Assembly (NCBI RefSeq): GCF_014889545.1
Contig: NZ_QKOF01000007.1
Span: 165,718 to 197,717, forward strand
Direction: 5' to 3'
Origin: Methanothermobacter thermautotrophicus
GTDB taxonomy: Archaea > Methanobacteriota > Methanobacteria > Methanobacteriales > Methanothermobacteraceae
Length of the DNA stretch: 32,000 bases
The translations under genes were made by a program, and so were the position numbers. Shown here in pieces: positions 4,301-30,857 of this stretch; position 1 is the stretch's first letter, and each line of letters starts with the position of its first letter. The notes below the pieces were generated by a model that was given only the letters and a program-made list of their open reading frames with translations, made no database searches and was not told where the DNA came from.

Positions 4301-5818
4301 GATTCGATGCTTGCAGAGTACTACCAGAAGCATGGCAGCTTCCCTGAACTCATCGGTATGGTTATGTGGGGCACTGAACTCCTGAGGACCGACGGGATAG
4401 CCATTGCAGAGTTCCTATACCTTCTCGGAGTTAAACCCCAGTGGAACAGTAACGGTGACGTCAACCCAGCCCCGGTCCTCATGAATGCATCAGAACTCAT
4501 GATAACAGTGAACGGTACCCGGATACCAAGGCCACGTATAGACGTATTTGTAACAGCAGTCACAGGTAACCAGCTCTGGATAGACCTCATGAATAAGGCC
4601 GTTGAACTTGCAGCTTCAGCCAGTGACACCGAGAACTATGTGAAAAAACATTACAGTGAATGCGGATCCCTTGACCGTGTATTCGGTCTCAGGGGACTCG
4701 TACTCGAGGGTACTGGTGTATCTGATATGACACCTGCAACCTCAAGGTGGAACACCAGCAGTGAACTCGCAGACGTCTACCTGTCAAGGGTATCCTATGC
4801 CTGGAGGTCCACCCCAGGAGGCGTGGATATACAGCAGAACCGGGGCACGTTCCAGTACCTCCTGGGTAAGGTGAACCTGGTGACACAGAACCTGGACAGC
4901 ACATGGAGGCTGATGGACACCGACGACTACTATGACTGGTTCGGTGGAATGGTCCTCGCATCAAGGCACCTGGGAGGTAACCCCGATACAGCTCTTATAG
5001 ATATAAGGAACAGGAACACGGTTACAGTGAGAACGGTGGCCGAGGAGATTGAACTTGAGATCAGATCCCAGCTCCTCAACCCGAAGTACATGGATTCCCT
5101 CCTCAATTCACCCAGCGGGTGGCTTGAATATGCTTCAAGGTACAAAAATGTCTTTGGAATTGCAGTTACAACCGGCAGCGTCAGCAATGAACTCTGGGAC
5201 CAGCTCGCAAGGAACCTTCTGAGTGACCGCTTCAGGGCATCCGGGGGCTATGAGGCCACTGCAACACAGTCCATGATTGCCTGGGTCCTTGAAGCCGCAA
5301 GGAGAAACATCTGGAGCGCCGACGGTTCCCTGGTGAGGGATCTTGCAAACCGTTACATTGAACTCGCAGGAGAGTACGGTGTTGTCTGCTGCCACCACAC
5401 CTGCGCAAACATTGTCTTCAATAACTGGGTGGTTAAGGTCTCATCCCTCAACCAGGCATCCCTCAAGAAGTTTGCAGCTGCACTGGCTGCAGCCACAGGG
5501 AAGTCCATTGATGTCCCTGGCTCTGATGGTTCACAGCCAGGATCAGCAAATGATGGTAGTGGGGTCGGCGAGACAGGTAAACCGGATTCAGGTTCCGCAG
5601 GATCTGCAGGTAGCAGTTCATCAGGCAGTGCATCCACTTCATCATCAGATGCTGCTGGAGAGTCATCATCCAGTGAAGGGAGAGAATCAGGGAAGGCCTA
5701 TGAGGTTTCAGCCTCAAATAGCAGCGGTTCAGCAGAGAGTCAGGTGCCCCTCTATGCAATTCTGGGTGTCGTGGCACTTGTACTGCTCGTAGGATTTGGT
5801 TACTTCAGGGGTAAATAA
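1358..5818 (+). CDS. cobN: CobN / Mg-chelatase H-subunit family protein with predicted signal peptide, N-terminal beta-rich module, Ser/Gly-rich linker and C-terminal membrane anchor
   Basis: 1486-aa track ORF. CobN-family hallmark stretches are HLGTHGTLEFLPG, NIYPYIVSNPGEGMVAKDRS, IDHMTPAM and LPTGANFYS. The N-terminus MALVAVILTVSLAGTVSA/AEV is signal-peptide-like. Residues ~20-110 (PVRNATVTI...TAPDGSYRI) resemble a carboxypeptidase-regulatory-like beta module. The C-terminus has a ~110-aa S/G-rich tract, then LYAILGVVALVLLVGFGYF and a basic RGK tail. A GGAGGTGA motif lies at 1334..1341. Confidence 0.9.
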   Translation: MALVAVILTVSLAGTVSAAEVTGHVREIYNETSGTYTTLENALPVRNATVTIIHNGSVLNETHTAPDGSYRINFNDTFPAVVQIKYSSYRTATYTINGSCTINHTFMPDIAIISSVPEKGRILKSMNNRRIIYHDMWDPSSAANDWIMEYVNFAYLDMAMPGTGWGDSWYPYLLRSPANQRNMIAAAFGYPTDTDSDPWGGTGLNLLGGTPGNDTADTIENTYIASYYALASGTAARENLENMVRYIQYLMGETTFNPVENGQGPVMASPDWGLYHPDRGVMSVSATREQIRAWIEGNPGFIPPYDSLRWIDQNFSSWAENQRADLYRNFENWYSANKNITGPFIVVVSYGPSATVDALIREAERQGRAAFNLYQGATSPAVSSLLEELTLGVNGKGPLNRNISAVISLYSWSLNYANLPSGGALSELERINLPVLKAVQLYSNSSLTNPMGAQYEWTWQVTIPGFEGVFSPVVVSYTDSSQNEVVVQSGVQKMVKLADAWARLRELENSEKKIAVILYSYPPGKDGFTASYLDVFRSLHELLVKLNESGYRVERIPSPEELYTIVSEFGNKGTWAQPLLERYVSEHRRELEARGQLLDIQRYLEWFNALPEKLRSEVISRWGQPPGNIMTVNGSIVIPGLMLGNIFITVQPARGWDEVTDYHNPYLPPHHQYLAFYRWIDEVLGADAMVHLGTHGTLEFLPGRMIGLMEDDWPFQLTSLPNIYPYIVSNPGEGMVAKDRSGALIIDHMTPAMVQSGLYGALIEIHDLIHQYENALKVGNNQILPALESRIKTEASEMGFNMTGNFTEALERLHLSLHEIESDIIPLGLHSLGRVLEGDELLEEVLTIASSRSDLLENIRKQLYPGLPAYTEMLKDPLRYSDEIASVKNLARLWIGSIINGTVPSGINATDLEFINDTIMKIRGNTEWQSILAALSGGFIRPGLAGDPAWCDVLPTGANFYSTNPRKMPTRAAWETAVRIVDSMLAEYYQKHGSFPELIGMVMWGTELLRTDGIAIAEFLYLLGVKPQWNSNGDVNPAPVLMNASELMITVNGTRIPRPRIDVFVTAVTGNQLWIDLMNKAVELAASASDTENYVKKHYSECGSLDRVFGLRGLVLEGTGVSDMTPATSRWNTSSELADVYLSRVSYAWRSTPGGVDIQQNRGTFQYLLGKVNLVTQNLDSTWRLMDTDDYYDWFGGMVLASRHLGGNPDTALIDIRNRNTVTVRTVAEEIELEIRSQLLNPKYMDSLLNSPSGWLEYASRYKNVFGIAVTTGSVSNELWDQLARNLLSDRFRASGGYEATATQSMIAWVLEAARRNIWSADGSLVRDLANRYIELAGEYGVVCCHHTCANIVFNNWVVKVSSLNQASLKKFAAALAAATGKSIDVPGSDGSQPGSANDGSGVGETGKPDSGSAGSAGSSSSGSASTSSSDAAGESSSSEGRESGKAYEVSASNSSGSAESQVPLYAILGVVALVLLVGFGYFRGK

Positions 5819-9066: not shown

Positions 9067-9780
9067 TTGAAATATTACAGGTTGAAATGTTCTAAGTGTG
9101 GATCAGAAAACAGTAGAGGGGCGAAATTCTGTTTAAACTGCGGATCAACTCTATCCCGTGAAGGCGGGGATAAAGGATGGTGGAAGAGGCAGAGCAGAAC
9201 CTCAAAGTTTCTTATCATCTCACCCATCGCCCTCCTCTTACTTGTCCTGGCCGTGGGTGCACTCACAGAACCATCCTATGACAGTGATGTTAATTATGAT
9301 AACGATTATGATAACGATTATGATAACGATGCTGCAAGCGTCTCAGGCGCATCCAGCATGAACACATTCTCTGAAAACGGAATATCATTCAGCTATCCAG
9401 ACACATGGGAAATCTACACACCCGATGAGAGTAGTGATGATAACGTTGTTTCCCTCAAGTCCTATCAGCAGGGCATGGCTTCAATTCTTTCCGTGTACAG
9501 GATGCCAGCCACGGGGGACCTTGAGACCGAACGCGATGCGTGTATTGAAGCCATCTCTAAAAATGGGGATGATGTAACCTATGTTAAGAAGACCACTGTG
9601 GACGGCAACAGGGCCTACATCATAGGATCCTCATACTACTATGAGGGTGATGAAGGTGAACAGGAGTACGTGGTATTCATTGAAGGGGACTATGCCTATA
9701 CTATCCTCTTTACAACCGATGACCTATCACTTATACAGGATGACATAGACAGCATAATATACAGTTTCAGGGTTGATTGA
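9067..9780 (+). CDS. Zinc-ribbon / single-TM / extracytoplasmic-domain protein
   Basis: 237-aa track ORF with a TTG start 7 nt after GGAGGT (9054..9059). It has an N-terminal CSKCGSENSRGAKFCLNCG ribbon, a TM helix FLIISPIALLLLVLAVGAL, an acidic NYDNDYDNDYDND tract, and a ~140-aa domain beginning FSYPDTWEIY (PsbP/DcrB-like impression, weak). Confidence 0.7.
   Translation: MKYYRLKCSKCGSENSRGAKFCLNCGSTLSREGGDKGWWKRQSRTSKFLIISPIALLLLVLAVGALTEPSYDSDVNYDNDYDNDYDNDAASVSGASSMNTFSENGISFSYPDTWEIYTPDESSDDNVVSLKSYQQGMASILSVYRMPATGDLETERDACIEAISKNGDDVTYVKKTTVDGNRAYIIGSSYYYEGDEGEQEYVVFIEGDYAYTILFTTDDLSLIQDDIDSIIYSFRVD
9292..9330 (+). repeat. 12-nt in-frame tandem repeat (aacgattatgat, about 3 copies) encoding (N-D-Y-D)n
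   Basis: aattatgat aacgattatgat aacgattatgat aacgat, read directly at 9292..9330 inside the 9067..9780 CDS. Confidence 0.9.
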
Positions 9781-10330
9781 GGTGTCTGATAGGACCATCC
9801 TGGTAATTGTGGCTGTCATGGTTATCCTCGCCGGGGCGGCGGTGGCACTGCAGCTCATGGACACCTGCAGCACTTCAGGTGCCGGTGACGATGTTATCAT
9901 CAAAAAAGCAGATGATGGCTACTACCTCAACCTCCAGGCCGCCCTGGAACTCGCAGAGATGGACACCGGCAATGGGACCGTGAACTACAGGAGCTTCAAC
10001 TTCACAGGACCACAGCGCCTCTACATCTACTCAAGGGCCGTGGTAATGATAGGATTCAATGACACTGGCATGATACACGTCAGGAATTACGGAGGACCGG
10101 AGGACCCCTACGGCTACCTTGACACCGCCACCCTCACAGAGAGCGAGTACCTTGACATGGCAGAGCGCACCTACACATGGATGGAATCCCATGGCAGAAG
10201 CCCCAACCATGTTGGGATCTACGTGGAGGGGTCACCTGATATAACGCCAGACCTTGCAGAGAAGATCTTCAGGGAGGTCCTCATTGAATACAGGAGGACA
10301 GGTAAACTCCCTGAGATTACAGGTGTCTGA
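9773..10330 (+). CDS. Membrane-anchored protein with C-terminal pseudomurein-binding-repeat-like motif
   Basis: 185-aa track ORF whose TTG start overlaps the upstream stop by 8 nt. It has an N-terminal TM helix ILVIVAVMVILAGAAVAL. The C-terminus LTESEYLDMAERTYTWMESHGRSPNHVGIYVEG...LIEYRRTGKLPEITGV matches my memory of the PMB repeat pattern (x-eYldmA-rv-x-ie-x-ngr-x-Pn-x-V). Confidence 0.55.
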   Translation: MIEVSDRTILVIVAVMVILAGAAVALQLMDTCSTSGAGDDVIIKKADDGYYLNLQAALELAEMDTGNGTVNYRSFNFTGPQRLYIYSRAVVMIGFNDTGMIHVRNYGGPEDPYGYLDTATLTESEYLDMAERTYTWMESHGRSPNHVGIYVEGSPDITPDLAEKIFREVLIEYRRTGKLPEITGV

Positions 10331-10447: not shown

Positions 10448-11149
10448 TTGAAGATTAAATTGATGTTAACTCTGCTGATTTTGTTAACCCTTATCAGTGT
10501 AATCCACCCTGTGAGCCTTCTCACCCCCTCAGGGGGCAACCATGAGGCCCGGGGTGAGGTCATCGGCTCGGATGAACTTGGCACCGTTGAAAGGCTGGGG
10601 CCCTACGGTAACCATGATTCACCCATCAGGATAGCCATCATAACAGGCGTCCACCCCCTGGAGGGGGATGCCCACAGTGCCATGATACAGGCTGTGGAGG
10701 AGAACTCAGACCGCCTCAGGTACATGTACGTCATCTACCACGTGAATGTAACCCGGGACCCCTCAGACTATGAGAGGGGGAGGATGGCGGGCCAGGTACT
10801 CGCAGGAAGGTACGTGGTCCCTGACGTGTCAGCCGGGGACTACGCCCTCGCAGTTGATGTGCACTCCAACAGGGGCAACTACGCCGTGAGGAGGTTCGTA
10901 TTCACACCACTCCCTGAGGAGAGGAGCAGAGGGATAGCCATGGAACTCTCATCAAGGATCAGCTGGTTATCCTACCACTTCCCGGAGTCCCAGACAAGCC
11001 CCGCCTATGTTACGGAACCCCTGATAAGGAACGGGATACCTGCAATCCTCTACGAGAACTACATGTACCAGGACCCATCCAGGACACTTGAAGATGCCAG
11101 GGAATTCCTGATGACCCTTGACTCCATTGACGTCTCCATGTTCAACTGA
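10448..11149 (+). CDS. Secreted M14-like (HxxE...H) zinc carboxypeptidase/deacylase-fold protein
   Basis: 233-aa track ORF (TTG start; an ATG lies 5 codons in). The signal peptide is MLTLLILLTLISVIHPVSL. IAIITGVHPLEGDAHS supplies an HxxE motif and AVDVHSNRG a downstream His, as in AstE/AspA and gamma-glutamyl carboxypeptidase families. The assignment is pattern-based. Confidence 0.45.
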   Translation: MKIKLMLTLLILLTLISVIHPVSLLTPSGGNHEARGEVIGSDELGTVERLGPYGNHDSPIRIAIITGVHPLEGDAHSAMIQAVEENSDRLRYMYVIYHVNVTRDPSDYERGRMAGQVLAGRYVVPDVSAGDYALAVDVHSNRGNYAVRRFVFTPLPEERSRGIAMELSSRISWLSYHFPESQTSPAYVTEPLIRNGIPAILYENYMYQDPSRTLEDAREFLMTLDSIDVSMFN

Positions 11150-11435: not shown

Positions 11436-12122
11436 ATGGTTGATGTGTGCGGTGTTAATGGATACGATGAGATCTCAGGGAAACTGAAGGATCTTCTGGG
11501 CCTTGAAAAATCCCCTGTGGCAATTAAACTCGTCCTGAGGGAGGATGACCTCCCTGAGGGTGTTGAGAAGATAGAAAAACCTGCAAGGCACTGTGAAATG
11601 GTCCAGATGGCTGCAGCAGGCGAGGTGTTCTATGCCACTGCAGAGGCCCAGGCATGCAAGGGTGGTGCCGATGCCCTCGGAATCGATGAGGCCCCTGAGA
11701 AGGTCAGGACAGGGGAGTTCTACTACAACCTCGGAAGGTTTGCAAGCTTTGCATCAGCCAAGAGGACCTTCGATGGGATACCATCCATTGACCTCAAATT
11801 CTATGCAGCAGTCTACGCACCCCTGGAGAAGGCCACATTCGACCCCGACGTAATATTGATAATCTGCAACCCGGCCCAGGCCATGAAGATCTCACAGGCC
11901 CTCGTCTACACCCTCGGGGGCCGTGTGGAGGCAGACTTCTCGGGTATACAGTCACTGTGTGCAGATGCCGTTGCAGGGCCATACATGAGGAAGAGGCCAA
12001 ACATAACCATGGGCTGCAGCGGATCAAGGCAGTACGCTGGTGTAAGGGACGATGAACTCATCGTCGGCCTCAACGGTGAAAACCTGGGATGCTTTGTTAA
12101 CGCCCTTGAGGCCATAAGTTAA
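11436..12122 (+). CDS. DUF169-family protein (uncharacterised, conserved in archaea)
   Basis: 228-aa track ORF. The stretch KSPVAIKLV...PARHCEMVQMAAAGEVFYATAEAQACKGGADALGI fits the DUF169 pattern as I remember it. Confidence 0.65.
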   Translation: MVDVCGVNGYDEISGKLKDLLGLEKSPVAIKLVLREDDLPEGVEKIEKPARHCEMVQMAAAGEVFYATAEAQACKGGADALGIDEAPEKVRTGEFYYNLGRFASFASAKRTFDGIPSIDLKFYAAVYAPLEKATFDPDVILIICNPAQAMKISQALVYTLGGRVEADFSGIQSLCADAVAGPYMRKRPNITMGCSGSRQYAGVRDDELIVGLNGENLGCFVNALEAIS

Positions 12123-12397: not shown

Positions 12398-12503
12398 GAG
12401 ATCATTCTGTATCTTTATCTACATCCCTGAAATGGTCCCTGATCCTCAAAGAGATCATTCTGTATCTTTATCTACATCCCTGAAATGGTCCCTGATCCTC
12501 AAA
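12398..12503. repeat. Perfect 53-bp tandem duplication spanning the last 15 codons plus stop of the minus-strand NTP-transferase gene
   Basis: gagatcattctgtatctttatctacatccctgaaatggtccctgatcctcaaa occurs at 12398..12450 and 12451..12503, checked base by base. The stop codon (tca on the plus strand) is at 12455..12457. Confidence 0.97.
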
Positions 12504-13171
12504 TAATCACTGTAATGGTTTATGTTAACAAGTTCAATGGGGTCAGAGGCCTCTACACCGTAGAGCCTCACACCATCCTCCAGCATCATCCAGAGGAGGG
12601 GGTTTATGTTACCATCCCCCCGGGGCAGGTACTCCCTGAGGAGATCGGCGCCTGCTGCAAGGGGCATCCCGATCCCCCTGGCACTCTCAAGCCAGCCACT
12701 CTCACCCCTCGCGAGGATTGAAACCGTGCAGGGATCAGCATGTTCAGCTATCCTCCTGAGGGTTGCAGGTGATACTGCTGGCTGGTCCCCTGCAGCGCAG
12801 AGAATTATATCTCCAGCTGCAGCCTTTACACCCCTCAGGAGTGACGAGGATAAAGGGACATCCACGGGGTCGTTTCTCACCACACGGACATCCAGACTGG
12901 AGAGGGCCTCCTCCACCTCCCCTGCCCTGTGGCCTGTCACGACTATGCACTCATCAACCCCCGCAGAGAGCACAGCCCTGACTGTAGCCTCTATGACGGT
13001 AACCCCATTGAGGGGGAGGAGGAGCTTGTGGACCGGTTCGAGGCCAAGTTCAGCCATGTCCCTCATCATCCGGCTCGCCCTGCCGGCTGCAGCAACGACA
13101 GCAGATATCACATTAACCACCCCAGGCGGGTTCAAGCCTGTATAGCCTGGCGTATATCCTTGTATTGGCAC
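12455..13171 (-). CDS. MobA/MocA-like nucleotidyltransferase (NTP_transf_3 type)
   Basis: 238-aa track ORF. The stretch ISAVVAAAGRASRM...KLLLPLNGVTVIEATVRAVLSAGVDECIVVTGHRAGEVEEAL...LCAAGDQPAVSPATLRRI fits the MobA-like L-A-A-G-x-S-x-R-M / G-D-x-P pattern. The true start is probably GTG at 13120 or 13111, beside the upstream stop within GTGGTTAATG, rather than 13171. Confidence 0.75.
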   Translation of the reverse strand: MPIQGYTPGYTGLNPPGVVNVISAVVAAAGRASRMMRDMAELGLEPVHKLLLPLNGVTVIEATVRAVLSAGVDECIVVTGHRAGEVEEALSSLDVRVVRNDPVDVPLSSSLLRGVKAAAGDIILCAAGDQPAVSPATLRRIAEHADPCTVSILARGESGWLESARGIGMPLAAGADLLREYLPRGDGNINPLLWMMLEDGVRLYGVEASDPIELVNINHYSDYLRIRDHFRDVDKDTE

Positions 13172-14291
13172 CTGAACCCGTCGTCCACATCTCTATGAGT
13201 ACCGGGTATTCCCCTGTGTTCCGGACCTTTATACCCGTTGCCGGGTTGAAGCCGAAGAGGACCGCATGGAACTCCCAGGTCATACCCCTCGGAAGGGGCA
13301 TGCCAGCTGAGGTCACGATGGCCCTCAGTGCCCTTGCAGGGGGGCATGAACCATGGGATGCATAACCGCCGGGGGCTTCAGGATCCCTTGATGCCGTGAA
13401 TCTCACGGTCTCCTTACCAGAGGCCTCACTACCCGGAGGGATTATTGTTCCATTCCAGGCCTCTGCGAAGGCCCTCGCATTGAAGGCCCTCTTATTATCA
13501 TCATACTCCGGGTAGGATCCAAGGAAACTCACTGCACTGGATACCAGGACCCGCCGGCTATCATCGGTGTAGACCATCACAGGGGATCCTGATGGGTAGT
13601 TCTCCATGTACTCGAGCGCAGAAGCGCCAAAGAGTTCCTCTATCATCCCTGGCGGGACAGGAAGCCTTCCATCACTGAAATTTGAGAGCTGATAGTCCAG
13701 CGTAATCCTGTCACCCTCATCGGCCCTCCTGTACCATCTCTTTATCCTGTCAATCGATTTGTATCTGTGGGGGACTGTGCTGTTGCTTATGCTCCCTGCC
13801 GGTACAAAACGGACCCTCTTTCCATTTTCAACTATCTCCAAACCATCCTTCCTTTTAACCCCATAGGTGTAGGGTGTCTTGTAGGCCCAGAGGAAGGTGG
13901 GGGGCTCCTCCACCACGAGCCTCCCACCCTGGACCCTGAGGGACCCTGGACCGCTGACAGTGGACCTGCCACTGGCATCCACACCCTCTGTCATCTCAGA
14001 TATGGGGACGTGTACAGTCCCTGTCAGGATGGCCTGGATGAGGTTTGATGGGTTGAGGTAGTTGAACTCGTCAAGTATGTAGTCGGGGTGGAGTATGAGT
14101 GGCACGCTCCTAACCCTGGACTCATCGATGACATCCTGGCCCTCGAGCACGGTACTCCCCATGGGAAGTGCCGCTATCTCCTCAGGGTCCTGTGGTTCAA
14201 CCCTTCCCTCAAGGTACCATCCAGCAGCCGCCGCTAGTGCAACCAGAACAATTAAAAGGATCAGGTGTTTACCTGATAGCTTCCTCACCAT
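13113..14291 (-). CDS. N-terminally anchored extracytoplasmic protein with VanW-like C-terminal domain
   Basis: 392-aa track ORF with the TM helix HLILLIVLVALAAAAGWYL. The C-terminal region GTIIPPGSEAS...GGYASHGSCPPARALRAIVTSAGMPL...GIKVRNTGEYPVLIEMWTTGSGANTRIYARLY parallels the VanW pattern (PGeefS ... GGGvCQvSttLYnA ... F-x-N-x-t-x-yPvlI ... v-x-iyG). GGAGAGGGGGG lies upstream of the ATG, and the start overlaps the upstream gene by 23 nt. Confidence 0.5.
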   Translation of the reverse strand: MVRKLSGKHLILLIVLVALAAAAGWYLEGRVEPQDPEEIAALPMGSTVLEGQDVIDESRVRSVPLILHPDYILDEFNYLNPSNLIQAILTGTVHVPISEMTEGVDASGRSTVSGPGSLRVQGGRLVVEEPPTFLWAYKTPYTYGVKRKDGLEIVENGKRVRFVPAGSISNSTVPHRYKSIDRIKRWYRRADEGDRITLDYQLSNFSDGRLPVPPGMIEELFGASALEYMENYPSGSPVMVYTDDSRRVLVSSAVSFLGSYPEYDDNKRAFNARAFAEAWNGTIIPPGSEASGKETVRFTASRDPEAPGGYASHGSCPPARALRAIVTSAGMPLPRGMTWEFHAVLFGFNPATGIKVRNTGEYPVLIEMWTTGSGANTRIYARLYRLEPAWGG

Positions 14292-17271
14292 ACCTGTATC
14301 CCCCCTCTCCTATTATGAGTACAGTGTCATCTGGTCCTGCAATTTCAAGGGCCCTCCTGACGGCCTCGGCCACCTGCTCCCTGCTGGCCCCCAGGGTGCC
14401 TCCACCGGCCCTCATCCTGCTGGATTCTATGTGGACCGCCTTCTCCCCGAGGATGCCCGAGGCCCTCCTGGCGGCATAGGATGCAGGTATGACCACATCT
14501 GCATCCTTGAGGATCGCTGCCATCTCCCTGTCCCCTTCGATTCCGCTCTCTGATGCCACGGTGTTGACCACTATAAGTCTCCGGTCACCCCTGAGCTCCT
14601 GCATGACGGCCCTGACACCTGCAGGGTTGTGGGCGTAGTCCAGGATGACCCTGGGCGACTCTAAGATCTCCTGGAACCTTCCGGGGACGCCTTTGAATGA
14701 TTCGATGCCCCTGACGATGTCATCGATCTCCACTCCCAGGGTCCATGCGGCTGCAGCCGCTGCAAGGGCATTGTAGACATTGAACATCCCGGGGGTTGCA
14801 AGTCTAACCTCCCTCATCTCCTGTCCGATCAGGAGCTTGAAGCCACCAGGGGTTGCATCGATGGCCATGACGTCTGGCTGGGGCCTCCTGTACCCGCAGA
14901 TGCACTGGTAGTCGCCGAGGTGCCCCATGGTCCTCCTGGTGTACCTCAGGGGCTTTCCGCACCTGGGGCACTCCCTGCCCTCAGGCACCACTCCCCTGGA
15001 CTCAGAGCTCTGTATGCCATAGAAAACCACCCTTTCACCAGGGAGTCCATCTGCAAGGGAGGCCACAACAGGGTCATCTGCATTGAGCACGAGATCCTCT
15101 GCAACCTCCACCATTTCAGCCTTGCATTCTATGTAGTCAGAGAATCTCCTCCCGCCCGACAGGTGGTCCCTTGATATGTTTGTTATAACACCCAGTGAGA
15201 CGCCGGAGAGCATGGCTGAACTTCCTATCTCACCCTTCCTCCCGAAGGTGCCTATCTCAACAACTGCGAGGTCACCCGGGAGCCTGGCCTGCAGGGCGGG
15301 TACAAGTTCCGTGTTTCCCTGGATCTTCAGGTGGTGCTCCGGGACCCTCATCCCTGCAGCCCTCATTATGGATTTGAGCATGGCAGTGGTTGTTGTTTTC
15401 CCGTTTGTCCCTGTAACACCCACCACGGGTTTATCGACCGGGCACATGTTGAGTACGTCCTTAACACCTATTATGTCTGCTTCAAGGCCCTCTATGAGTT
15501 CACGGATCCTCCTGTTATTCTCCAGGGCCGGTGTTATGGCCACAGTCCTCGCCCTCCTGAGTATATCAGGGTCATGGCCTCCGAGGTCGAGGTGTATCCC
15601 CTCCTCCCTCAGCACATCCGCCAGGGGTGTATCCTGCCGGAGATCCGAGACCACGACCCTGTGGCCCCTGGCCCTGAGGTTTCTTGCCATGAGGCTTCCC
15701 ACGTTTCCCAGGCCCCCGAGGACGACCACACAGTCATCCATGGACTTCAGGGCCTCCTCGATGTCGGACCTCACATTTTCGTAGGCGTTGACAACCCCGG
15801 GGCCTATATGAAGGATGGTATCCCCTGGTTCTGCAATCTCAAGGGCCCTCCTTATGCTATCATATACGCTCTCTGTCTTTATGGTCCTCTCCTCACCGGC
15901 GCCCCTGGCAACCTCATCGGCGGCCTCCATGTCAGTGACTCCGGTTGTCTCGTTCTTTGCACTTACGATGATGGTGTCGGCCCTTTCAGCCAGGACCCTC
16001 CCTATCCTCTCCTTGTCCCTCACCGTGAGGGTGTCCGGGTTGTCCAGGCTCACTATGAGTCTGCCCTGGAACTCCATGCCCTCGAATAGTTTCTCCATGC
16101 TCTCGGGGTTGTGGGCTGCGTCCATGTACACCCTGACACCGTCAACCTCATCTATGAATTCGAATCTGCCCCTGATGCCCCTGAAGTCCTCGATACGCCT
16201 CTTTATATCCTCCATGTCAAATCCGAGTATGAGTGCGACGGTTATGGCTGCAAGGGCGTTTTCAACGTTGAATATGCCCGGAACCCTGAGGTTTATCCTC
16301 TCCCTGATGGGCCCCACAGAGGCCATACCGTCATGTTCCCTGCAGTTGAGGACTCCGCAGGTGCTGCAGATGGCTGTGGGTATCTCAGAGACATCCAGCG
16401 TGAAAGTTGAGCCTGCAAGTCCCCTAAGCTCTATATCGGAGGCCCTGACCTGGATCCTGGCTGAGCCAGTGAATCTCCTGCCCATAAATTCTACCGTCCT
16501 CTTCTCACCCACACCATAGACCGCCTTTGCCACTTCAAGGTCGTCCAGGAGTCTTGATATAACTGGATCATCGCCGCAGAGTGCCAGAACACCTCCGGGG
16601 GCTATTAGATCCTTTATTGAGAAGTTCCTCTCAATGTACTCATCGTAGTCACTGAATTCGTCCATGTGATCGGGTGTGAGGTTTGTCACAACCCCTGCTG
16701 AGAGTTCGAGGCCCTCGGCCATCCTTATTGTGCCGTGGGGGAGTTCGAACACCGCAAGATCCCTGTCGCATGTATCCCCCTTCACCACGAGTTCCACGAG
16801 GCCCTCTATCACCAGGGAATCCTGGAGTGATGAGAATGATACTGTCCTGTAGCGTGAGGAGAGGATGTGGTCTATCATGTTGGTTGTTGTGGTCTTCCCG
16901 TCGGTTCCCGCCACTCCGACCATGGGGATCCCTATGAGCTCGTTGAGGGTCCTCCCTATATCTGAGCTTGTTATTTGGACCAGGTCCCCGGCATCCCTTA
17001 CCATTTTACGTACCGGTGCGTCCTGGGGGATGTTGGGTGATATGAAAACAGCGTCTGCCCAGAGTATATCCTCCATGCTGTGACCCCCGAACCTGAACTT
17101 CACACCCTCATCCTTCATCTCAGCTATCCTCTTCTGGGCCTTCGGGGGGAGTTCATGGAGTTCCCTGACATCGTTAACAAGGACCCTGTTGTTGAGGTGG
17201 TTGAGCAACCTCGCTGCAGGCCTACCTGCGTTTCCAGCTCCAATCACAAGCACTTTCCTGTTCCTGATCAA
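14269..17271 (-). CDS. Tandem double Mur-ligase (two MurD/MurT-like units fused in one polypeptide)
   Basis: 1000-aa track ORF with a TTG start. Unit 1 has VLVIGAGNAGRPAARLL (MurD-type Rossmann N-domain) and GVAGTDGKTTTTNMI (P-loop). Unit 2 has VVVLGGLGNVGSLMARNL and GVTGTNGKTTTTAML, plus a Cys4 ribbon CPRCGKPLRYTRRTMGHLGDYQCICG. Both halves carry DxAHNP-type motifs (DAAHNPESM and DYAHNPAGV). Confidence 0.85.
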   Translation of the reverse strand: MIRNRKVLVIGAGNAGRPAARLLNHLNNRVLVNDVRELHELPPKAQKRIAEMKDEGVKFRFGGHSMEDILWADAVFISPNIPQDAPVRKMVRDAGDLVQITSSDIGRTLNELIGIPMVGVAGTDGKTTTTNMIDHILSSRYRTVSFSSLQDSLVIEGLVELVVKGDTCDRDLAVFELPHGTIRMAEGLELSAGVVTNLTPDHMDEFSDYDEYIERNFSIKDLIAPGGVLALCGDDPVISRLLDDLEVAKAVYGVGEKRTVEFMGRRFTGSARIQVRASDIELRGLAGSTFTLDVSEIPTAICSTCGVLNCREHDGMASVGPIRERINLRVPGIFNVENALAAITVALILGFDMEDIKRRIEDFRGIRGRFEFIDEVDGVRVYMDAAHNPESMEKLFEGMEFQGRLIVSLDNPDTLTVRDKERIGRVLAERADTIIVSAKNETTGVTDMEAADEVARGAGEERTIKTESVYDSIRRALEIAEPGDTILHIGPGVVNAYENVRSDIEEALKSMDDCVVVLGGLGNVGSLMARNLRARGHRVVVSDLRQDTPLADVLREEGIHLDLGGHDPDILRRARTVAITPALENNRRIRELIEGLEADIIGVKDVLNMCPVDKPVVGVTGTNGKTTTTAMLKSIMRAAGMRVPEHHLKIQGNTELVPALQARLPGDLAVVEIGTFGRKGEIGSSAMLSGVSLGVITNISRDHLSGGRRFSDYIECKAEMVEVAEDLVLNADDPVVASLADGLPGERVVFYGIQSSESRGVVPEGRECPRCGKPLRYTRRTMGHLGDYQCICGYRRPQPDVMAIDATPGGFKLLIGQEMREVRLATPGMFNVYNALAAAAAAWTLGVEIDDIVRGIESFKGVPGRFQEILESPRVILDYAHNPAGVRAVMQELRGDRRLIVVNTVASESGIEGDREMAAILKDADVVIPASYAARRASGILGEKAVHIESSRMRAGGGTLGASREQVAEAVRRALEIAGPDDTVLIIGEGGYRYGEEAIR

Positions 17272-17479
17272 TTACATGCACCCATAAACCTTTTTATCAA
17301 ACAAGCTCTCCTTCCTGATGAACTGTGAATAAGAGTAACACCATATGCCAATGATAGTAGCTTTACCTTACCGGTCAGACAGTCTACCTAAAGATATGTG
17401 CTCATCCTATATAGCTATCAGGATCCCGGACCAATCCCTGGAGGTGCCCATCACCACCAGTGGGTCCTGTCAATGTGAT

Positions 17480-18694
17480 CTAGGCACATGATACAATGGC
17501 CTCGAGTTCCTCCTGGATCCTGATAAGCACATCCTGTCCGTTACCTGCCACAAGTATCCTCCCATACTCCCTGGAGAACTCCCTGACCATCCCTGGAATC
17601 TCCCGGGGGTCATGGGTGGTGAGGACCTCCGATGGGATCCTGAGTTCCCTCAGGTGCTCAAGGGCCATCTCAACCGTGTCCTCAAGCCCCGGAAAGAGTA
17701 CAAGGATTTCAGGTGGAGACTCTGCGATTTCATCAAGGATCCCCAGACGCCACTCCTCTGATCTTCGTGGTGTGCCCAGGAATACGACATCAAAATCAGA
17801 TTCACTGAGCAGGGCCCTCATGGCGTGGGGGTTATCGGTTTTACCTGCAACCACCACTGCACCATTCACACTGAACGATCTTATGCGGCCCGCCACCGGT
17901 CTGAACCCTGAGAGGTACCTGGCGGTGACCTCAGATGGTATTCCAAGAAATTTCAGGGCCTCCTCAGCGGCCCCTGCGTTGAGTCTGTTGAACTTCCCCT
18001 CCAGGACGAGTTCACCCCGGTAGGGGGTGTATCTCATGACCCTCCTGGCCCTCACTGTGAGTTCCCTGAGGTGGGGTTCGTCTTCAGATATGACCACATC
18101 CCTGCCCTCAAGGAACCCGGCCACCGAGTCCCTGTAGTTCTCCATGGACCCGTGAAAGTCCAGGTGGTCCTCTCCCAGGTTTGTGAGGACAACCAGGTCA
18201 ATGTCGAAGCACCTGGATGCGAATTCAAGGGTCATGTCGCAGACCTCCACCACCATGTAATCGAATTCCTCCTCAGATGCCCTCAGTATGACCTCAGTGT
18301 ATCCATCGAATCCGCCTCCTGCGTTTCCGCCGAGGAGGACCCTCCTGCCTGCACTCTCAAGTACATGTGCTATCATTGACGCCGTCGTGGTCTTCCCGTT
18401 GGTCCCTGTAACTGCAACTGTGACCGGCTCCCTGTGACCCCTGAGTACCCTGCAGAGGAGCCTGTCACTGAACCTTTCCCAGAGATCTGTGCCAAAGAGT
18501 GAGGGGCTCAGTACAACGGCATCAGATGAGGCTATCCTCTCTGTGTCATGGAAGCCAAGGTCAACGTCCACGCCCTCCATGTTCAGTTCAATATCATCCC
18601 TTATATCACTGGCGTATACGCTGTGGCCCCTCCTCCTGAGGGATTCAACAGCCTTTAAACCCTCAACTCCAAGTCCCAGAACCGCAATCCTCAT
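17480..18694 (-). CDS. MurD-like Mur-family ligase (single unit)
   Basis: The track ORF runs to 18760, but the ATG at 18694 is preceded by GGTGA with a 4-nt spacer and starts MRIAVLGLGVEGLKAVESLRRRGHSVYASD (Rossmann N-domain). It avoids overlap with the upstream 88-aa gene. The P-loop is VAVTGTNGKTTTASMI. Confidence 0.85.
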   Translation of the reverse strand: MRIAVLGLGVEGLKAVESLRRRGHSVYASDIRDDIELNMEGVDVDLGFHDTERIASSDAVVLSPSLFGTDLWERFSDRLLCRVLRGHREPVTVAVTGTNGKTTTASMIAHVLESAGRRVLLGGNAGGGFDGYTEVILRASEEEFDYMVVEVCDMTLEFASRCFDIDLVVLTNLGEDHLDFHGSMENYRDSVAGFLEGRDVVISEDEPHLRELTVRARRVMRYTPYRGELVLEGKFNRLNAGAAEEALKFLGIPSEVTARYLSGFRPVAGRIRSFSVNGAVVVAGKTDNPHAMRALLSESDFDVVFLGTPRRSEEWRLGILDEIAESPPEILVLFPGLEDTVEMALEHLRELRIPSEVLTTHDPREIPGMVREFSREYGRILVAGNGQDVLIRIQEELEAIVSCA

Positions 18695-18713
18695 CGATTC
18701 ACCGTTCCTGCCC

Positions 18714-18980
18714 TCAGTTATCATCCCTTTCATCAGAGACTCCCTTATCCTCTTCATCATCGGATACTCCGTACTCCTCCTTGAGCTGGGCTATTATATC
18801 CTCATTCTTTGACACCTCTGGCTTCACCGTCCCTTCATCCCCACTAACCTTCTTTCTCCTTCCTATAAAAACAATCAGTACGATTATGACTGCAATGGCC
18901 GCTATAACAGCTGCAACGGTTATGATAACGTCAATGCCTATTACTGGAGTCTCTGTACCGGCTCCGGGTCCCATTGTCAC
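18714..18980 (-). CDS. Small single-pass membrane protein with acidic C-terminal tail; first gene of the ligase operon
   Basis: 88-aa track ORF with the TM helix IDVIITVAAVIAAIAVIIVLIVFIG followed by RRKK and an E/D-rich tail. Its stop lies 19 nt before the ligase start, and a TATA-like element lies upstream. Confidence 0.55.
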   Translation of the reverse strand: MTMGPGAGTETPVIGIDVIITVAAVIAAIAVIIVLIVFIGRRKKVSGDEGTVKPEVSKNEDIIAQLKEEYGVSDDEEDKGVSDERDDN

Positions 18981-18990
18981 ACCTCAAAAT

Positions 18991-19018
18991 TTTATATAAA
19001 CGATCATACAATATATAT
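18991..19018. promoter_or_regulatory. Divergent promoter region with two TATA-like boxes
   Basis: tttatataaa (18991..19000) ends 24 nt before the ATG at 19024, which implies a leaderless or near-leaderless mRNA. atatatat (19011..19018) lies ~31-38 nt upstream of the minus-strand start at 18980. Confidence 0.5.
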
Positions 19019-19023
19019 CTTAC

Positions 19024-19587
19024 ATGATAATCAGGGATTTAAGGGGGCAGGGGGGTGCAGAATACATACTGCTCTTCGCAGCGATAATAGTGATAGCTGT
19101 TGCAGCCCTCTACATATACAGCTCCTACTTCAAATTCGCAGGGAACGAGACCGTGGAGGTCAAACTCACCATAACGAATATCGGACCATCCAAGAGCAAG
19201 TTCATCTATGAGGCCAACAACACCACGGGTGGTGGGAGCAGGCACATAGTATCAGGGGACCCAGGTAACAGATTCTTCCTTCTCCAGCCGGGTGCAAGCA
19301 GGACCTTCAACCTTGGGAGGATGAGTGGGGGTACAAGCTTCACCATTGAGGGGGGAGTGGGAGACCCCCGCGGCGGAACAGATGACCTGAGGGGTATAGG
19401 TCAGAGGGGCCGCTGGACCCTCACAATCGGCAACCAGACCTACTCATGGGTTATAAGCGGACCCTACGACTACCGCAGGAACCCCACCGGCAGTGTGCTG
19501 ATGTCCTTCTCAATAAGTGGAGGTGGAGGTTCACCCTTCAAATTCAGCAGTGACCAGGTTCAGGTGAGGGGAAACGTATCAGGCTGA
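19024..19587 (+). CDS. Class III signal peptide (archaeal type IV pilin-like) protein
   Basis: 187-aa track ORF. The N-terminus MIIRDLRGQGGAEYILLFAAIIVIAVAALYIY fits the K/R-G-Q...E-hydrophobic prepilin-peptidase substrate pattern. The mature part is Gly-rich and beta-rich. Confidence 0.7.
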   Translation: MIIRDLRGQGGAEYILLFAAIIVIAVAALYIYSSYFKFAGNETVEVKLTITNIGPSKSKFIYEANNTTGGGSRHIVSGDPGNRFFLLQPGASRTFNLGRMSGGTSFTIEGGVGDPRGGTDDLRGIGQRGRWTLTIGNQTYSWVISGPYDYRRNPTGSVLMSFSISGGGGSPFKFSSDQVQVRGNVSG

Positions 19588-24355: not shown

Positions 24356-26869
24356 TCAGCCGGCCTTTTCTATGATGGATGTTCCGTCAGACTTTTCAAC
24401 CCTGTAGATATGGTCTGCAAGGTTTTCAAGTTCCTCCTCATGTGATACAAGGATTATCTGTCTGGATTCAAGTTCATCAAAGATGTCCCTGAGCTTGTAG
24501 AGCTGTTCCTTGCTGAATCCATCGGTGGGTTCGTCAAGTATGAGGATGTCTGACCTCACATCGGTGAGCCTCTGTACCACCATGTTCAGTGCAAGCCTGT
24601 ATGCAAGTGCTATGCTGGTCCTCTCACCACCACTGAGGTATTCAAGGTTCTGCTCATAGCCGTCCTGCTCGATGATGGGTGTGAAGTCCTCATCAACCCT
24701 CACAGATTTGCTGGGGTCATCCACGAGGACCCTGAACCATTTCTGGAATCTCTCATTGAACTCATGGTTTATCTGTGCCATCACATGGGTCTCAATGTCG
24801 GCGAGAGCAGGGATGAAGTACTCCTCGAGCCAGGTCACATAGTTTCCCAGTTCCCGTGCACGTTTCCTGAGTTCTCTCTTTTTAGCAATTTCAGACTCAA
24901 GGTTACCAATCTGTCTCTGCTTCTCCTCGATTTTTCCTTCAACTGCACCCCTTCTGTCTCTTTTTTCATCTCGAAGATTTTCCATTTCACCGATACTCTG
25001 GGTTAGCTCATGTATACTGGACTCAACTTCATCCCTGTTTTTGAGTGCCTCTTCATTTTCCTTGATTTTAGCTTTCTTTTCAGCGATTTTATTTTTATTT
25101 TCATCAATTTTCTTGAGGTTATCTCTGTATTCCCTGCTGGTCTCAGGGTTGAGTTCACTGATCCTGGTCCTGAGATGATCCATCCTGTCCTCTGTTGCTG
25201 CAAGTCTGCCAGAGCATTCTGACTCACGCTCACGCAGGGATTTCAGTTCATTCTCCACACTGTTAAATTCAGATTCTGCGTCCTTCAGTTCCTCGATTAT
25301 CCTCTCAGTCCCTGCAATCTCTTCCTCAATCTCCCGGATCCTTTCTCTGGTTTTATCAAGCCCTTCACGCTTTCTACGGCACTCATCAATCCGTTTCGCA
25401 AGGTCCTCCCTGAGCAGCCTCAGTTCATCCCGGGCCCTCTTATATTCCCCTATACGCTTCAGGAGTTCATTTTTATCCAAGATTTCATTTCTGAGCTCTG
25501 ATATCCTTGATTCAACTGATTTCCTTCTTTCACGGGCCTCGCTGAGTCTATCATCTATGTAGTCCGGGTCAACCTCCTGGTCACATGTGGGGCATATCCC
25601 CCTGGTTCCGATGGATTTGTAGTCCTCTATCTTACCCTTGATCCCGCCGAGTTCCTGCTGGAGAGCCGACACCTCAACCTCAAGCCTCCTGATCCCGGCT
25701 TCAACTTCATCCTCCCTGTATCCAGGATCCTCAATGGACTCCATGACCTCTATCTTTGATTTTATTCGGCCAGTGTACTCTTCAATCCATGATATTTCAT
25801 CCTCAAGTTCCTTCCCTGTCTTAAGGAGATTTTTGAGTTCACTGGTAAGGTTCCTGAACTGGATTGAGGCTTCCCTGAACCTCCGGGAGTCCTCCATGAG
25901 GGATTCCCTTTTCATCTCAATTCCCTGTATCCTTTCCCTGAGTGACCCGAGTTCCTCCTGGACCTTCTCCCTTCTATCCTTGCATCTCTGGAGTTCATCA
26001 ACGGATCTCTGATACTCCTCCTCTATATCCCTGTTCCTTTCCATGAGTCTCTCTGAGGATGACATCAGGATTTCCATCTCATTTTTAAGGGATTCTATCT
26101 CCTTCTCGGCACTATCAATCCTGTTCTTCTCTACCTGAAGACCCTCCATCTCTGATTCAAGTTTACGTATCTCTTCCTCAATTTTTTCTATATCCCCGTC
26201 AAGGAGTTTCTTCTCTGCTTCAATCTCCTTCTTCTCGCTCAGAAGGTTCTCAAGTTCTCCCTCCTTATCCTCAAGGTCATAGGACCTATCTTCAAGGCTC
26301 TCTGATTCCCTTCTTATTCTCCTGGAAACAAGCCTTGCATTATCAGCCGCCCTGCTGTACTTCTCAATGTCAAAGGCCTTCCTGAGCCTTTCAAGACGGT
26401 CATTCCTGGGGGCCTCAATTATGCTCTTCATCTGCTCCTGTGGGGTGAAGACAGCGTAACGGTATATCCTGCTCTTGGCCCTGGGGTTCAGGGGTTCCCT
26501 GTAACCGAGTATCTCAAGTACCTCGGCCTTCAATTCCTTTGCAGAGAGTTTCCTGACCCCACGGGGTGTTCTGATGTGGAGTTCGCCCTGCTGAACCCCG
26601 CTGGACCCCCTCCTGAGTTCCCTGTAAACCGTGTACTCCTCTCCCTCAACGGTGAAGGTGAGCTTAACCGAACCTGAATTTGATGTGGCCCTCAGGAGGC
26701 TGTCACCCCTCTGATCACCCAGGCCGAAGAGGGCGAATTCTATTGCAAGGAGCAGAGTGGTCTTACCTGAACCAATATCACCCTCAAATAGGGTCACCCC
26801 CTCATCAAACTCAACCCTTCCCGACTCATAGCTCCTTATGTTCCTGATTTCAAGTGAATTGATGATCAA
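24356..26869 (-). CDS. rad50: Rad50 DNA double-strand-break repair ATPase
   Basis: 837-aa track ORF. Motifs are Walker [14 protein letters not shown], a long E/K/R-rich coiled coil with the zinc hook CPTCDQ in the middle, signature motif LSGGERTS, Walker B ILILDEPT, and VSHEEEL. It has a 4-nt overlap with mre11. Confidence 0.95.
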
Positions 26870-28128
26870 GTACCATCACCACCCAGATCCAGGTCCAGGA
26901 CATCCTCGGCATCCTCGGTGATCCTCTTCTCATATTCGCTCCTGTTCTCACCCGGGGCCTTCTCATTCTCAAGTCTCCTCAGGAGCTCAACCGCAATGGA
27001 ATCACCCTCATCCATGAGTCTCCTGTTTTTGATGTCAAGCCCTGCAAGTTTCTCCCTGAAGATCCTCCTCTCCATTCTGGGCACATCACTCTCCACCACC
27101 CTGACCTTCTGGATCTCGCGGGTGCTGAGGCCGTACCTGTTTATCTGGACGACACGGGCCCCCATGGATTCAAGTCTTTCCCTTATACTCGCCGAGTTTA
27201 TGTCCGATGTCCTTCCTGAGCTGAGCTCACCCCTTATCTTGAGCATCACAACCTTCCCTGTAACATCATGGTCCGCTATCTCCCGCCCTATCAGGGAGAA
27301 TGCGTCCTGGGAGTTCCTCCCTGTAACATCACATTCAATGTACTCGAACTCGGCCGGCCTTATCTCCCTGAACTCAGGTTCCCTGACCTTATCAGTGAAT
27401 TCCACCAGATAGTAACCCCTGACCTCTCCCCTGGCGTTTTCCTCGAGGTCACCGGCGTATGAACCAAAGAGTGTGCCCGGGTACACGATGGGACCGTAGC
27501 CCTCCTCATGGTAGCATCCACTCCTGTGGACGTGTCCACCGGCATAGTACTCGAATCCCCTGGGGAAGAGGTTCAGGTCCACCGATTCCATGTCTGCAAG
27601 GTCAGCCGGTTTGAACTGGGTTATGGCGCTGTGGAAAAGGAATATCCTGAACCCCTCCTCGGCCTCCAGGGCATCCCTGTCGAGTTTCATGAAGTAGTCG
27701 ACCTCAAGGGTCCTTGATCTGCCTGAAAGTCCTGTGATCTTTGCGCCTGTCTTCTCGTCCACCGTGAACTCAAGTCCAAGCCTCTTACCTGGGATGGGGC
27801 GAACGACCTTCTCTATCACCCCTGCACTTTCAAGGATGTCTATCATGGATGTGTTGGATGGGCTGTAGTCGTGACTCCCGTAGTTGACGTATATGGGGAC
27901 CCCCGCCTCCCTGACCCTCCTGAGTTCAAGGGTGGCCCTCTTGACGGTCTCCATGTTGGGTATGTTGGAGTGGAAGAGGTCCCCTGCTATTATTATGAAG
28001 TCAACGTCATTCTGGAGTGCATCATCCAGGGCCATCCTGAAGGCCTCAAATTCAAGTTCCCTGAGGTCAGGCTGTTTCTGAGCCCCCAGGTGGCAGTCTG
28101 AGAGGTGTGCGAATCTGTACATGCCCAC
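26866..28128 (-). CDS. mre11: Mre11 nuclease (calcineurin-like phosphoesterase)
   Basis: 420-aa track ORF with [24 protein letters not shown] and AGGHVH phosphoesterase motifs in the canonical order. Confidence 0.93.
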
Positions 28129-28130
28129 AC

Positions 28131-30721: not shown

Positions 30722-30753
30722 GTAAATGTTTAATATTGAATAAGAAATGAATG

Positions 30754-30760
30754 TTATAAA
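30754..30760 (-). promoter_or_regulatory. TATA-box-like element for the nurA-herA-mre11-rad50 operon
   Basis: The minus strand reads ctaTTTATAAcat, ~33-39 nt upstream of the ATG at 30721, within the only AT-rich stretch between 30722 and 30857. Confidence 0.4.
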
Positions 30761-30857
30761 TAGTTTGTGGTTTTCTGCTGAAGTACTCTGTCCATTGCAA
30801 AGCCCCTGCTCCTTCTCAGGAGAGGGGTCGCCATGGCATCCGATGGCACCGCGGGAC

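Follow-up and report, generated by a model that had tools for sequence, protein, structure and literature searches.

The pseudomurein Gene Cluster 1 operon of Methanothermobacter thermautotrophicus and a candidate VanW-type domain in its PmurA protein

The DNA considered here, called the window throughout, comprises 32,000 nucleotides (nt) of Methanothermobacter thermautotrophicus (assembly GCF_014889545.1, contig NZ_QKOF01000007.1, positions 165,718 to 197,717). Our subject is an operon of five genes, all on the minus strand, with the locus tags DNK57_08250 to DNK57_08265. A sequence-only reading, made by a model that ran no database searches, had taken it for an operon building the stem peptide of pseudomurein. 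In its centre this was right: NCBIfam models recognise four of the products, and the cluster has been published. What our analysis adds is a new and testable hypothesis, drawn from sequence comparison, that one of the products, PmurA, may be a VanW-type extracytoplasmic cysteine enzyme.

The operon begins with a small membrane gene (18714..18974). It encodes 86 residues if translated from the ATG at 18974, or 88 from the GTG at 18980, with which the open reading frame (ORF; 18714..18980) begins. The ATG is the more likely start, because a GAGGTG lies 6 nt upstream of it and RefSeq (WP_192962489.1) annotates the 86-residue form from this codon. After a gap of 19 nt (18695..18713) follows the pMurD2 gene (17480..18694) with 404 residues from an internal ATG at 18694, which is the residue where the family model begins to match. 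A gap of 208 bp (17272..17479) separates it from a pMurD1-pMurC fusion gene (14269..17271) of 1000 residues with a TTG start; residues 1-512 (15736..17271) form the pMurD1-type half, residues 513-1000 (14269..15735) the pMurC-type half. The last two genes are those of PmurA (Mfer335 family; 13113..14291; 392 residues) and PmurB (Mfer334 family; 12455..13120; 221 residues, GTG start). The fusion gene and the PmurA gene overlap by 23 nt (14269..14291), and the PmurA stop and the PmurB start both lie within GTGGTTAATG at 13111..13120, an overlap of 8 nt. The five co-directional frames and all junctions had been described correctly from the letters. The arrangement is not a matter of chance, since its core order recurs across 80 genomes.

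The three Mur-ligase modules had also been recognised correctly; each carries a GT(N/D)GKTT P-loop. The pMurD2 protein scores 555.4 bits against NF053647 (cutoff 550) over model positions 1-405 of 405, has the P-loop GTNGKTT and the Mur_ligase_M domain of Pfam, and is, by its family match, a pseudomurein peptide ligase. In the N-terminal half of the fusion the P-loop reads GTDGKTT, and a CxxC...C..H motif is inserted. The pMurD1 model NF053646 matches it end to end (positions 2-459 of 465), with 373 bits for the half alone and 491 bits in the fusion, which is below the cutoff of 610; the next model reaches 138 bits. We call this half pMurD1-type on best-hit and synteny grounds only. The pMurC model NF053645 gives 623 bits with the whole fusion and 490 bits with the C-terminal half alone (cutoff 560), again end to end (2-491 of 492), the next model being at 131 bits. 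Scanned alone, each half thus stays below its own cutoff, yet is more than 230 bits ahead of the next model. In the translation of the pMurC half, GTNGKTTT is the P-loop, and four cysteines (CPRC...CIC) make up a zinc-ribbon insert. Its zinc-ribbon cysteines and its Asn-type P-loop match features described for Mfer336/6VR7, and the structure itself, PDB 6VR7 (M. fervidus pMurC), matches fusion residues 514-999 with E 5e-162.

Mur-ligase central and C-terminal domains are, of course, common property of several enzyme families, and weak cross-hits are seen. The modules could therefore in principle make something other than a cell wall: coenzyme F430 if they were of the CfbE type, folyl- or F420-polyglutamate if of the FolC type, or a cyanophycin-like polymer. 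We consider this extremely improbable and effectively refuted already. The CfbE model NF033197 yields 29 and 99 bits (cutoff 250), the FolC model TIGR01499 25 and 101 bits (cutoff 163) and the cyanophycin synthetase model 184 bits (cutoff 850), all far too low, whereas the matches to the pMur models run from end to end; pMurC has been reported to act on a UMP-Glu substrate analogue (PMC12996149), and the cluster is limited to pseudomurein producers (see below). The first reading had named a CfbE- or folylpolyglutamate-type identity as the finding that would overturn it; none emerged. Its label 'MurT-like' was imprecise, as the MurT models score only 40 and 158 bits against a cutoff of 800. Models of the bacterial MurD and MurC give sub-threshold to moderate matches. 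With these enzymes of the dcw cluster the archaeal ligases share the three-domain architecture, the P-loop and the ATP-dependent stepwise extension of a peptide on a substrate linked to uridine diphosphate (UDP). According to the literature, however, the pseudomurein substrate is a UDP-linked glutamyl peptide instead of UDP-MurNAc, and the amino acids are of the L-form throughout, with gamma and epsilon bonds. The zinc-ribbon inserts are archaea-specific, and here two modules are fused into 1000 residues.

PmurB is a MobA/GlmU-like nucleotidyltransferase by its sequence, as the first reading had it. It reaches 262 bits with NF053639 (cutoff 260) and 86 bits with PF12804 (gathering cutoff 27). 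Its identity to PDB 6PLJ, a structure deposited under the name "nucleotidyl transferase", is about 92%. The PF12804 fold is shared with the nucleotidyltransferases of the MobA, GlmU and MurU type and with 6PLJ; Cha et al. 2026 (PMC12996149) chose MurU as structural comparator. The proposed acceptor differs from theirs: where they use a sugar phosphate or molybdopterin, PmurB would use N-phospho- or gamma-phospho-glutamate. At the end of the PmurB gene we observed a perfect 53-bp tandem duplication (12398..12503; 2.0 copies, 100% identical). It spans the last 16 codons, the stop and 5 nt; the second copy lies just past the stop and leaves the protein unchanged. The duplication looks very recent.

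The system as such is already known; its genes have been catalogued, and some of the products have been crystallised or assayed. The same arrangement was described by Subedi et al. 2021 (PMC10117817), who named it pseudomurein Gene Cluster 1, with type 1A for M. thermautotrophicus and M. marburgensis. They remarked that annotations show the two ligase genes fused or overlapping, and they demonstrated that the cluster is limited to pseudomurein producers. Independently, Lupo et al. 2025 (PMC11915815) arrived at this gene set as cluster B. In the window, PmurA and PmurB, both above their NCBIfam cutoffs, adjoin each other and are accompanied by at least one ligase of the C/D type. The pMurD2 gene, pMurD1/pMurC and the homologues of Mfer335 and Mfer334 agree with the published cluster in identity and order, and type 1A agrees with the window in species and in its distribution restricted to pseudomurein producers. 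There is no essential difference; the window has in addition the upstream gene for an 86-residue membrane protein, and in this strain the fusion starts at TTG because the ATG of other strains reads AGG. We are highly confident that the operon is the Methanothermobacter type 1A version of Gene Cluster 1, or cluster B, and that it serves the assembly of the pseudomurein stem peptide.

The pathway has been studied in vitro by Cha et al. 2026 (PMC12996149). They report nucleotidyl transfer involving Glu by PMurB, addition of Ala or Thr to a UMP-Glu analogue by PMurC and addition of Lys by PMurE; PMurA and PMurD displayed ATP hydrolysis only, without product. Based on this literature, PmurB would help in the cytoplasm to make the UDP-activated glutamate starter, to which the pMurC half of the fusion would add alanine at the expense of ATP. 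The two remaining ATP-dependent additions, probably of the terminal Ala and the gamma-linked Glu, would then fall to pMurD1 and pMurD2. PmurA, held by a single N-terminal anchor helix, would cross-link or trim the exported peptide, and here our view departs from the literature.

Three points of the sequence-only reading have to be corrected, of which that on the small membrane gene is taken up further below. It had called the operon a nearly self-contained module, which is too strong because the 32,000-nt window has no pMurE gene; pMurE, an MraY-like transferase and an ATP-grasp enzyme are placed in a second cluster, cluster 2 (PMC10117817, PMC11915815). It had also held that the non-ligase members lack an assigned role. 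This is outdated: in vitro data connect PmurB with UDP-Glu formation, and PmurA has been proposed as a glutamate kinase. The roles having been assigned or proposed before, the system is not new.

How general the arrangement is was examined in one genome per species. A scan seeded with the PmurA alignment, onto which the window proteins were mapped, yielded 80 loci. PmurA is directly followed by PmurB in 76 of them, and pMurD2 lies upstream in 69. The conserved core is pMurD2-PmurA-PmurB. The remaining ligases are variable. If 'fused' means that both ligase matches fall within one stop-to-stop ORF, pMurD1 and pMurC are fused as in the window in 13 loci and are separate genes in two, while 42 of the 80 lack both in the PmurA cluster; according to the literature, such genomes have them in cluster 2. 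Another 13 loci, of the Methanobacterium type, have pMurD2 and pMurD1 in one ORF and pMurC apart, so that the set of ligases is the same but fused in another way.

The first reading would also have been refuted by the same arrangement in archaea without pseudomurein. Neither the 80 loci nor a profile run against 1.84 billion representative proteins, which returned nothing beyond the PmurA family itself, revealed an occurrence outside the pseudomurein producers. By their labels, 78 loci are Methanobacteriales-type or unresolved archaeal. The other two come from metagenome-assembled genomes named 'Methanomicrobiales archaeon' (JBNGDB010000006.1, 31.8% G+C) and 'Bacteroidaceae bacterium' (CAVDAS010000079.1, 28.8% G+C). 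Both carry typical Methanobacteriaceae clusters of the pMurD2-PmurA-PmurB-DUF169 kind; probably these contigs were mis-binned or mislabelled and do not break the phyletic rule.

The DUF169 gene just mentioned is found in the window at 11436..12122 on the plus strand (PF02596, E 6e-70), convergent with PmurB. It occurs near PmurB in 70 of the 80 loci, nearly always just downstream and convergent, with 41-94% identity. We found no mention of this microsynteny in the papers on pseudomurein that we consulted.

The protein that deserves most attention is PmurA. It matches its family model well above the cutoff (NF053640, 540 bits, cutoff 400), and its structural model, built with AlphaFold 2 (AF2) at a pLDDT of 91.3, starts with a helix at residues 7-28 and continues with beta-rich domains. 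The layout is an N-terminal transmembrane anchor (residues 7-28; 14208..14273), a beta-rich region without detectable relatives, and a C-terminal VanW-like domain (residues 265-388; 13128..13499), the latter supported by hhalign against VanW profiles. The first reading had called the protein anchored, and the AF2 helix and hydropathy bear this out. The net charge is +3 before the transmembrane helix and -4 after it, and this asymmetry predicts an N-in/C-out topology in which most of the protein is extracellular.

The relatives of PmurA are hard to find. None of 107 database homologues carries a Pfam domain, Foldseek with the AF2 model retrieved no match from the PDB or BFVD, and a search of PDB sequences with the PmurA profile was equally negative. 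Within the family, all 117 members share H313, G314, C316, P317, R320, D207, R209, N271, W279 and N358 without exception, and 116 of them have R323. The residues from H313 to R323 form the motif H313-G-x-C316-P-x-x-R320-x-x-R323, of which 13344..13355 covers H313 to C316; C316 is the sole cysteine of the window protein. The most divergent homologue, seen in two Methanopyrus-like contigs of 62.5% G+C (GCA_054046225.1, GCA_054003095.1), keeps the motif as HGCCPPARALR. It has no adjoining Mur ligase or PmurB there; its neighbours are MoaA-like, AlaRS and HypA/B.

The sequence-only reading had called PmurA 'VanW-like'. At the level of Pfam this does not hold: the VanW family (PF04294) matches with 15.5 bits and E 0.012, the cutoff being 27, and only with model positions 2-31. 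Weak VanW matches appear in 12 of 40 family members (best E 0.0019) and are the sole recurrent weak Pfam match; the family consensus reaches 17.1 bits and E 0.0038, again below threshold and with the model start only. Comparing profiles with profiles, by contrast, supports remote homology. With a narrow alignment of VanW-B/G-type proteins, 62-72% identical, hhalign gave E 0.086. After this had been replaced by a diverse VanW set drawn from plasmid records, the probability was 86%, with E 5e-6 and a score of 39.2 over 109 columns. Controls stayed well below this score: the reversed profile reached 13.4, and the best of 40 column shuffles and of 40 block shuffles reached 16.6 and 24.3, respectively. 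A second profile-profile comparison yielded 69.8% and E 4.1e-5, and an independent subset of long VanW proteins 70.5% and E 3.9e-5. An hmmsearch of 120 VanW proteins with a profile of the PmurA C-terminal domain was marginal (best P about 0.002). PmurA residues 30-240 have no similarity to the N-terminal domains of bacterial VanW proteins (P 0.32).

What VanW domains do has been learned recently. Bollinger et al. 2024 (PMC11348318) characterised them as L,D-transpeptidases with a Cys-His-Asp triad and a fold unlike any solved structure, in membrane-anchored, extracytoplasmic proteins. PmurA resembles them in several respects. C316 is aligned to the VanW catalytic cysteine (GGGxCQ motif) in every alignment, this cysteine being at the N-terminus of an equivalent helix, and the predicted secondary structures are colinear except for one extra VanW helix, that of VanW residues 95-105. 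Like the VanW enzymes Ldt4 and Ldt5 of C. difficile, PmurA has a membrane anchor and, by prediction, an extracytoplasmic domain. Neither fold has a relative in the PDB, and both are encoded alongside genes of cell-wall synthesis.

In other respects PmurA differs from these enzymes. Beyond remaining under the Pfam threshold, it does not conserve the VanW His (ERxxH) and Asp (GxDA), which align with non-conserved positions; this is the main weakness of the proposal. It also lacks PG_binding_4 and G5 domains, and its presumed substrate is the all-L pseudomurein peptide. In PmurA, the invariant H313 lies three residues before the cysteine, two Arg follow it by one and two helical turns, and D207 is invariant elsewhere. 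The His and Arg residues near C316 may perhaps form an active site. From these comparisons we infer that PmurA is an extracytoplasmic enzyme with a diverged VanW-type domain that would act on the exported stem peptide. Taken together, such a domain and an outside topology would leave no room for phosphorylation of glutamate in the cytoplasm.

The latter is the function considered so far. Subedi et al. 2021 (PMC10117817) named Mfer335 as a candidate for the phosphoryl-transfer step, and the proposal is also that of Cha et al. 2026: PmurA would be a cytoplasmic, ATP-dependent enzyme that phosphorylates glutamate in the first step towards UDP-Glu. PmurA adjoins PmurB, to which it is translationally coupled, as a direct neighbour in nearly all loci (see above), and recombinant PMurA degraded ATP to ADP and AMP (PMC12996149). 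However, Glu-P, the expected kinase product, was not detected in the same study. PmurA matches no kinase or NTPase family in Pfam or NCBIfam; the pattern nearest to a nucleotide motif, GSEASGKE, is not conserved. The transmembrane helix and the charge asymmetry predict the domain to lie on a side of the membrane where ATP is not available, and the sole homology detectable points to VanW, whose domains belong to cysteine transpeptidases outside the cytoplasm. The kinase hypothesis rests on gene adjacency and a product-less ATPase; topology and motif fit it poorly, and we regard it as unlikely. A reading of PmurA as an 'NTPase' was likewise discarded, since the protein has no Walker A motif.

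What, then, could an extracytoplasmic PmurA do? Our tentative answer, offered as one possibility to be taken seriously, is that it may be the missing cross-linker of pseudomurein and belong, in a diverged archaeal form, to the superfamily of VanW cysteine transpeptidases. PmurA would cleave the terminal L-Ala of the exported stem peptide via a thioacyl intermediate on C316 and would then join the peptide to the amino group on an adjacent stem. In the classical pathway of Hartmann and König, cross-linking is said to release terminal alanine; if this is right, a cysteine transpeptidase would have just this chemistry. Subedi et al. state that extracellular cross-linking enzymes were not found in pseudomurein archaea (PMC10117817), and transglutaminases have been invoked in the literature as cross-linkers. 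In full-text literature searches no paper tied VanW to pseudomurein; apparent matches turned out to be the author name Vanwonterghem.

The VanW-like domain might equally be real and yet serve another purpose, either as a hydrolase, i.e., a carboxypeptidase or endo-isopeptidase of wall remodelling, or as a non-catalytic protein that binds pseudomurein or acts as a scaffold. Such a role is conceivable, and we hold it with as little assurance as that of a cross-linker. The missing His and Asp speak for it; so does the finding that four of seven foreign VanW proteins were without L,D-transpeptidase activity in the assay of Bollinger et al. (PMC11348318), and the L,D-transpeptidases of the YkuD type include carboxypeptidases and endopeptidases, too (PMC12729407). 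Against mere binding stand the invariance of H313, C316 and R320, the near-invariance of R323 and the lack of any other cysteine, because of which catalysis is favoured. Further, there is one PmurA copy per genome, and it sits inside a biosynthetic operon, where a step of synthesis fits better than remodelling.

The head of the operon is occupied by the 86-residue membrane protein. It starts with MGPG, has a single transmembrane helix and a basic stretch, and ends in an acidic tail with LKEEYG. It has no Pfam match; TIGR04561 scored 21 bits (cutoff 30) and was dismissed as a merely compositional match. In a database search, homologues came from Methanothermobacter only, and they retain the LKEEYG motif at 40% identity. 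By this conservation it is a real gene and a lineage-specific addition. The first reading had counted it as a member of the module, but it is not a conserved one: the gene lies upstream of pMurD2 in 3 of about 60 assessable loci (L001, L005, L014), and it occurs only in Methanothermobacter and a few genomes related to it. Does it belong to the pseudomurein machinery, e.g., as a membrane tether or regulator of the ligases? It heads the operon behind a conserved promoter, 19 nt from pMurD2, and six other genomes (L001, L005, L014, L095, L096, L097) have it in this same place before pMurD2, at identities down to 40%. Its absence from this place in most Methanobacteriales loci, the confinement of its homologues to Methanothermobacter, the lack of a domain match and its omission from both published catalogues (PMC10117817, PMC11915815) make such a role rather doubtful.

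Upstream of this gene lies a divergent promoter region of 49 bp (18975..19023), almost invariant in five Methanothermobacter genomes. It contains two TATA-like elements, TTTATATAAA at 18991..19000 and ATATATAT at 19011..19018; GAGGTG at 18980..18985 serves as ribosome-binding site. By these elements, the probable promoter of the operon is of the TATA-box type and lies near 19000. The divergent gene (19024..19587, plus strand) encodes a protein of 187 residues (PF04021), the signal peptide of which is of class III (type IV pilin-like). It uses the 49-bp region in common with the pseudomurein operon, and the pairing recurs in L001, L005, L014, L096 and L097.

An internal promoter in the 208-bp gap had also been suggested from the letters. 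A gap upstream of the fusion ligase is present in 5 of 5 Methanothermobacter genomes, with 135-210 bp, and is mostly unconserved. In an alignment of the five, however, TATATA at 17408..17413 is invariant, and a block of about 45 nt that spans the ligase start (17250..17296; GGTTTATGGGTGCAT.AATTGATCAGGAACA.GAAAGTGCTTGTG; the gap portion is 17272..17296) is nearly so. Together they lend the suggestion modest support, and it is possible that the gap holds a candidate internal promoter plus leader. Rfam gave no significant match in the gap, only two chance-level CD-box matches elsewhere, and RNAalifold no covariation-supported fold. A sigma-70/terminator scan produced counts at chance level and is not applicable to archaea.

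At 17268..17300 (minus strand) a strong Shine-Dalgarno-like GGAAGGAGAG is followed by a 10-codon TTG mini-ORF, MIKRFMGACN, whose TGA overlaps the TTG of the fusion. The element is present in L096, a closely related metagenomic contig, and deleted or changed in M. marburgensis and two others. As it is not conserved across the four other genomes, we rejected it as a leader peptide; it is probably non-functional. The ATG with which the ligase starts in other strains is AGG in this strain, and the fusion therefore starts at the conserved TTG at 17271, which is the choice of RefSeq, or at the GTG at 17253.

The surroundings of the operon contain further genes worth recording. Two wall-related ones sit 1.3-2.7 kb from PmurB on the plus strand: 9773..10330 encodes a membrane-anchored protein with a pseudomurein-binding repeat (PF09373, E 9e-15), and 10448..11149 a 233-residue protein with a signal peptide and an HPLEGDAH (HxxE-type) motif, without Pfam match. 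The latter may be the 'Zn peptidase' OG0000169 of Lupo et al. 2025 (PMC11915815), which in strain Delta H is three genes away from the NTP transferase. More distant is a 1486-residue protein with a CobN/Mg-chelatase domain (1358..5818, plus strand; PF02514, E 3e-230). Its build is uncommon among chelatase subunits, with a signal-like segment at the N-terminus, a tail rich in Ser and Gly and a hydrophobic anchor at the C-terminus. On the minus strand, 24356..30874 is occupied by an operon of Rad50, Mre11, HerA and NurA.

The significance of the operon depends on PmurA. No cross-linking enzyme of pseudomurein has been identified before, and the literature denies homologues of the bacterial ones in these archaea. 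VanW domains were recognised as peptidoglycan transpeptidases only in 2024, and the reproducible remote homology to them of PmurA, the most conserved uncharacterised gene of the cluster, makes the question of pseudomurein cross-linking experimentally concrete. If our proposal is true, the published pathway would be wrong twice, with PmurA as a glutamate kinase and with transglutaminases as cross-linkers, and bacterial peptidoglycan and archaeal pseudomurein would have a homologous family of cross-linking enzymes in common. Once confirmed, PmurA would be a target for inhibiting methanogens of the gut and the rumen, and the finding would bear on the common ancestry of murein and pseudomurein beyond the cytoplasmic ligases.

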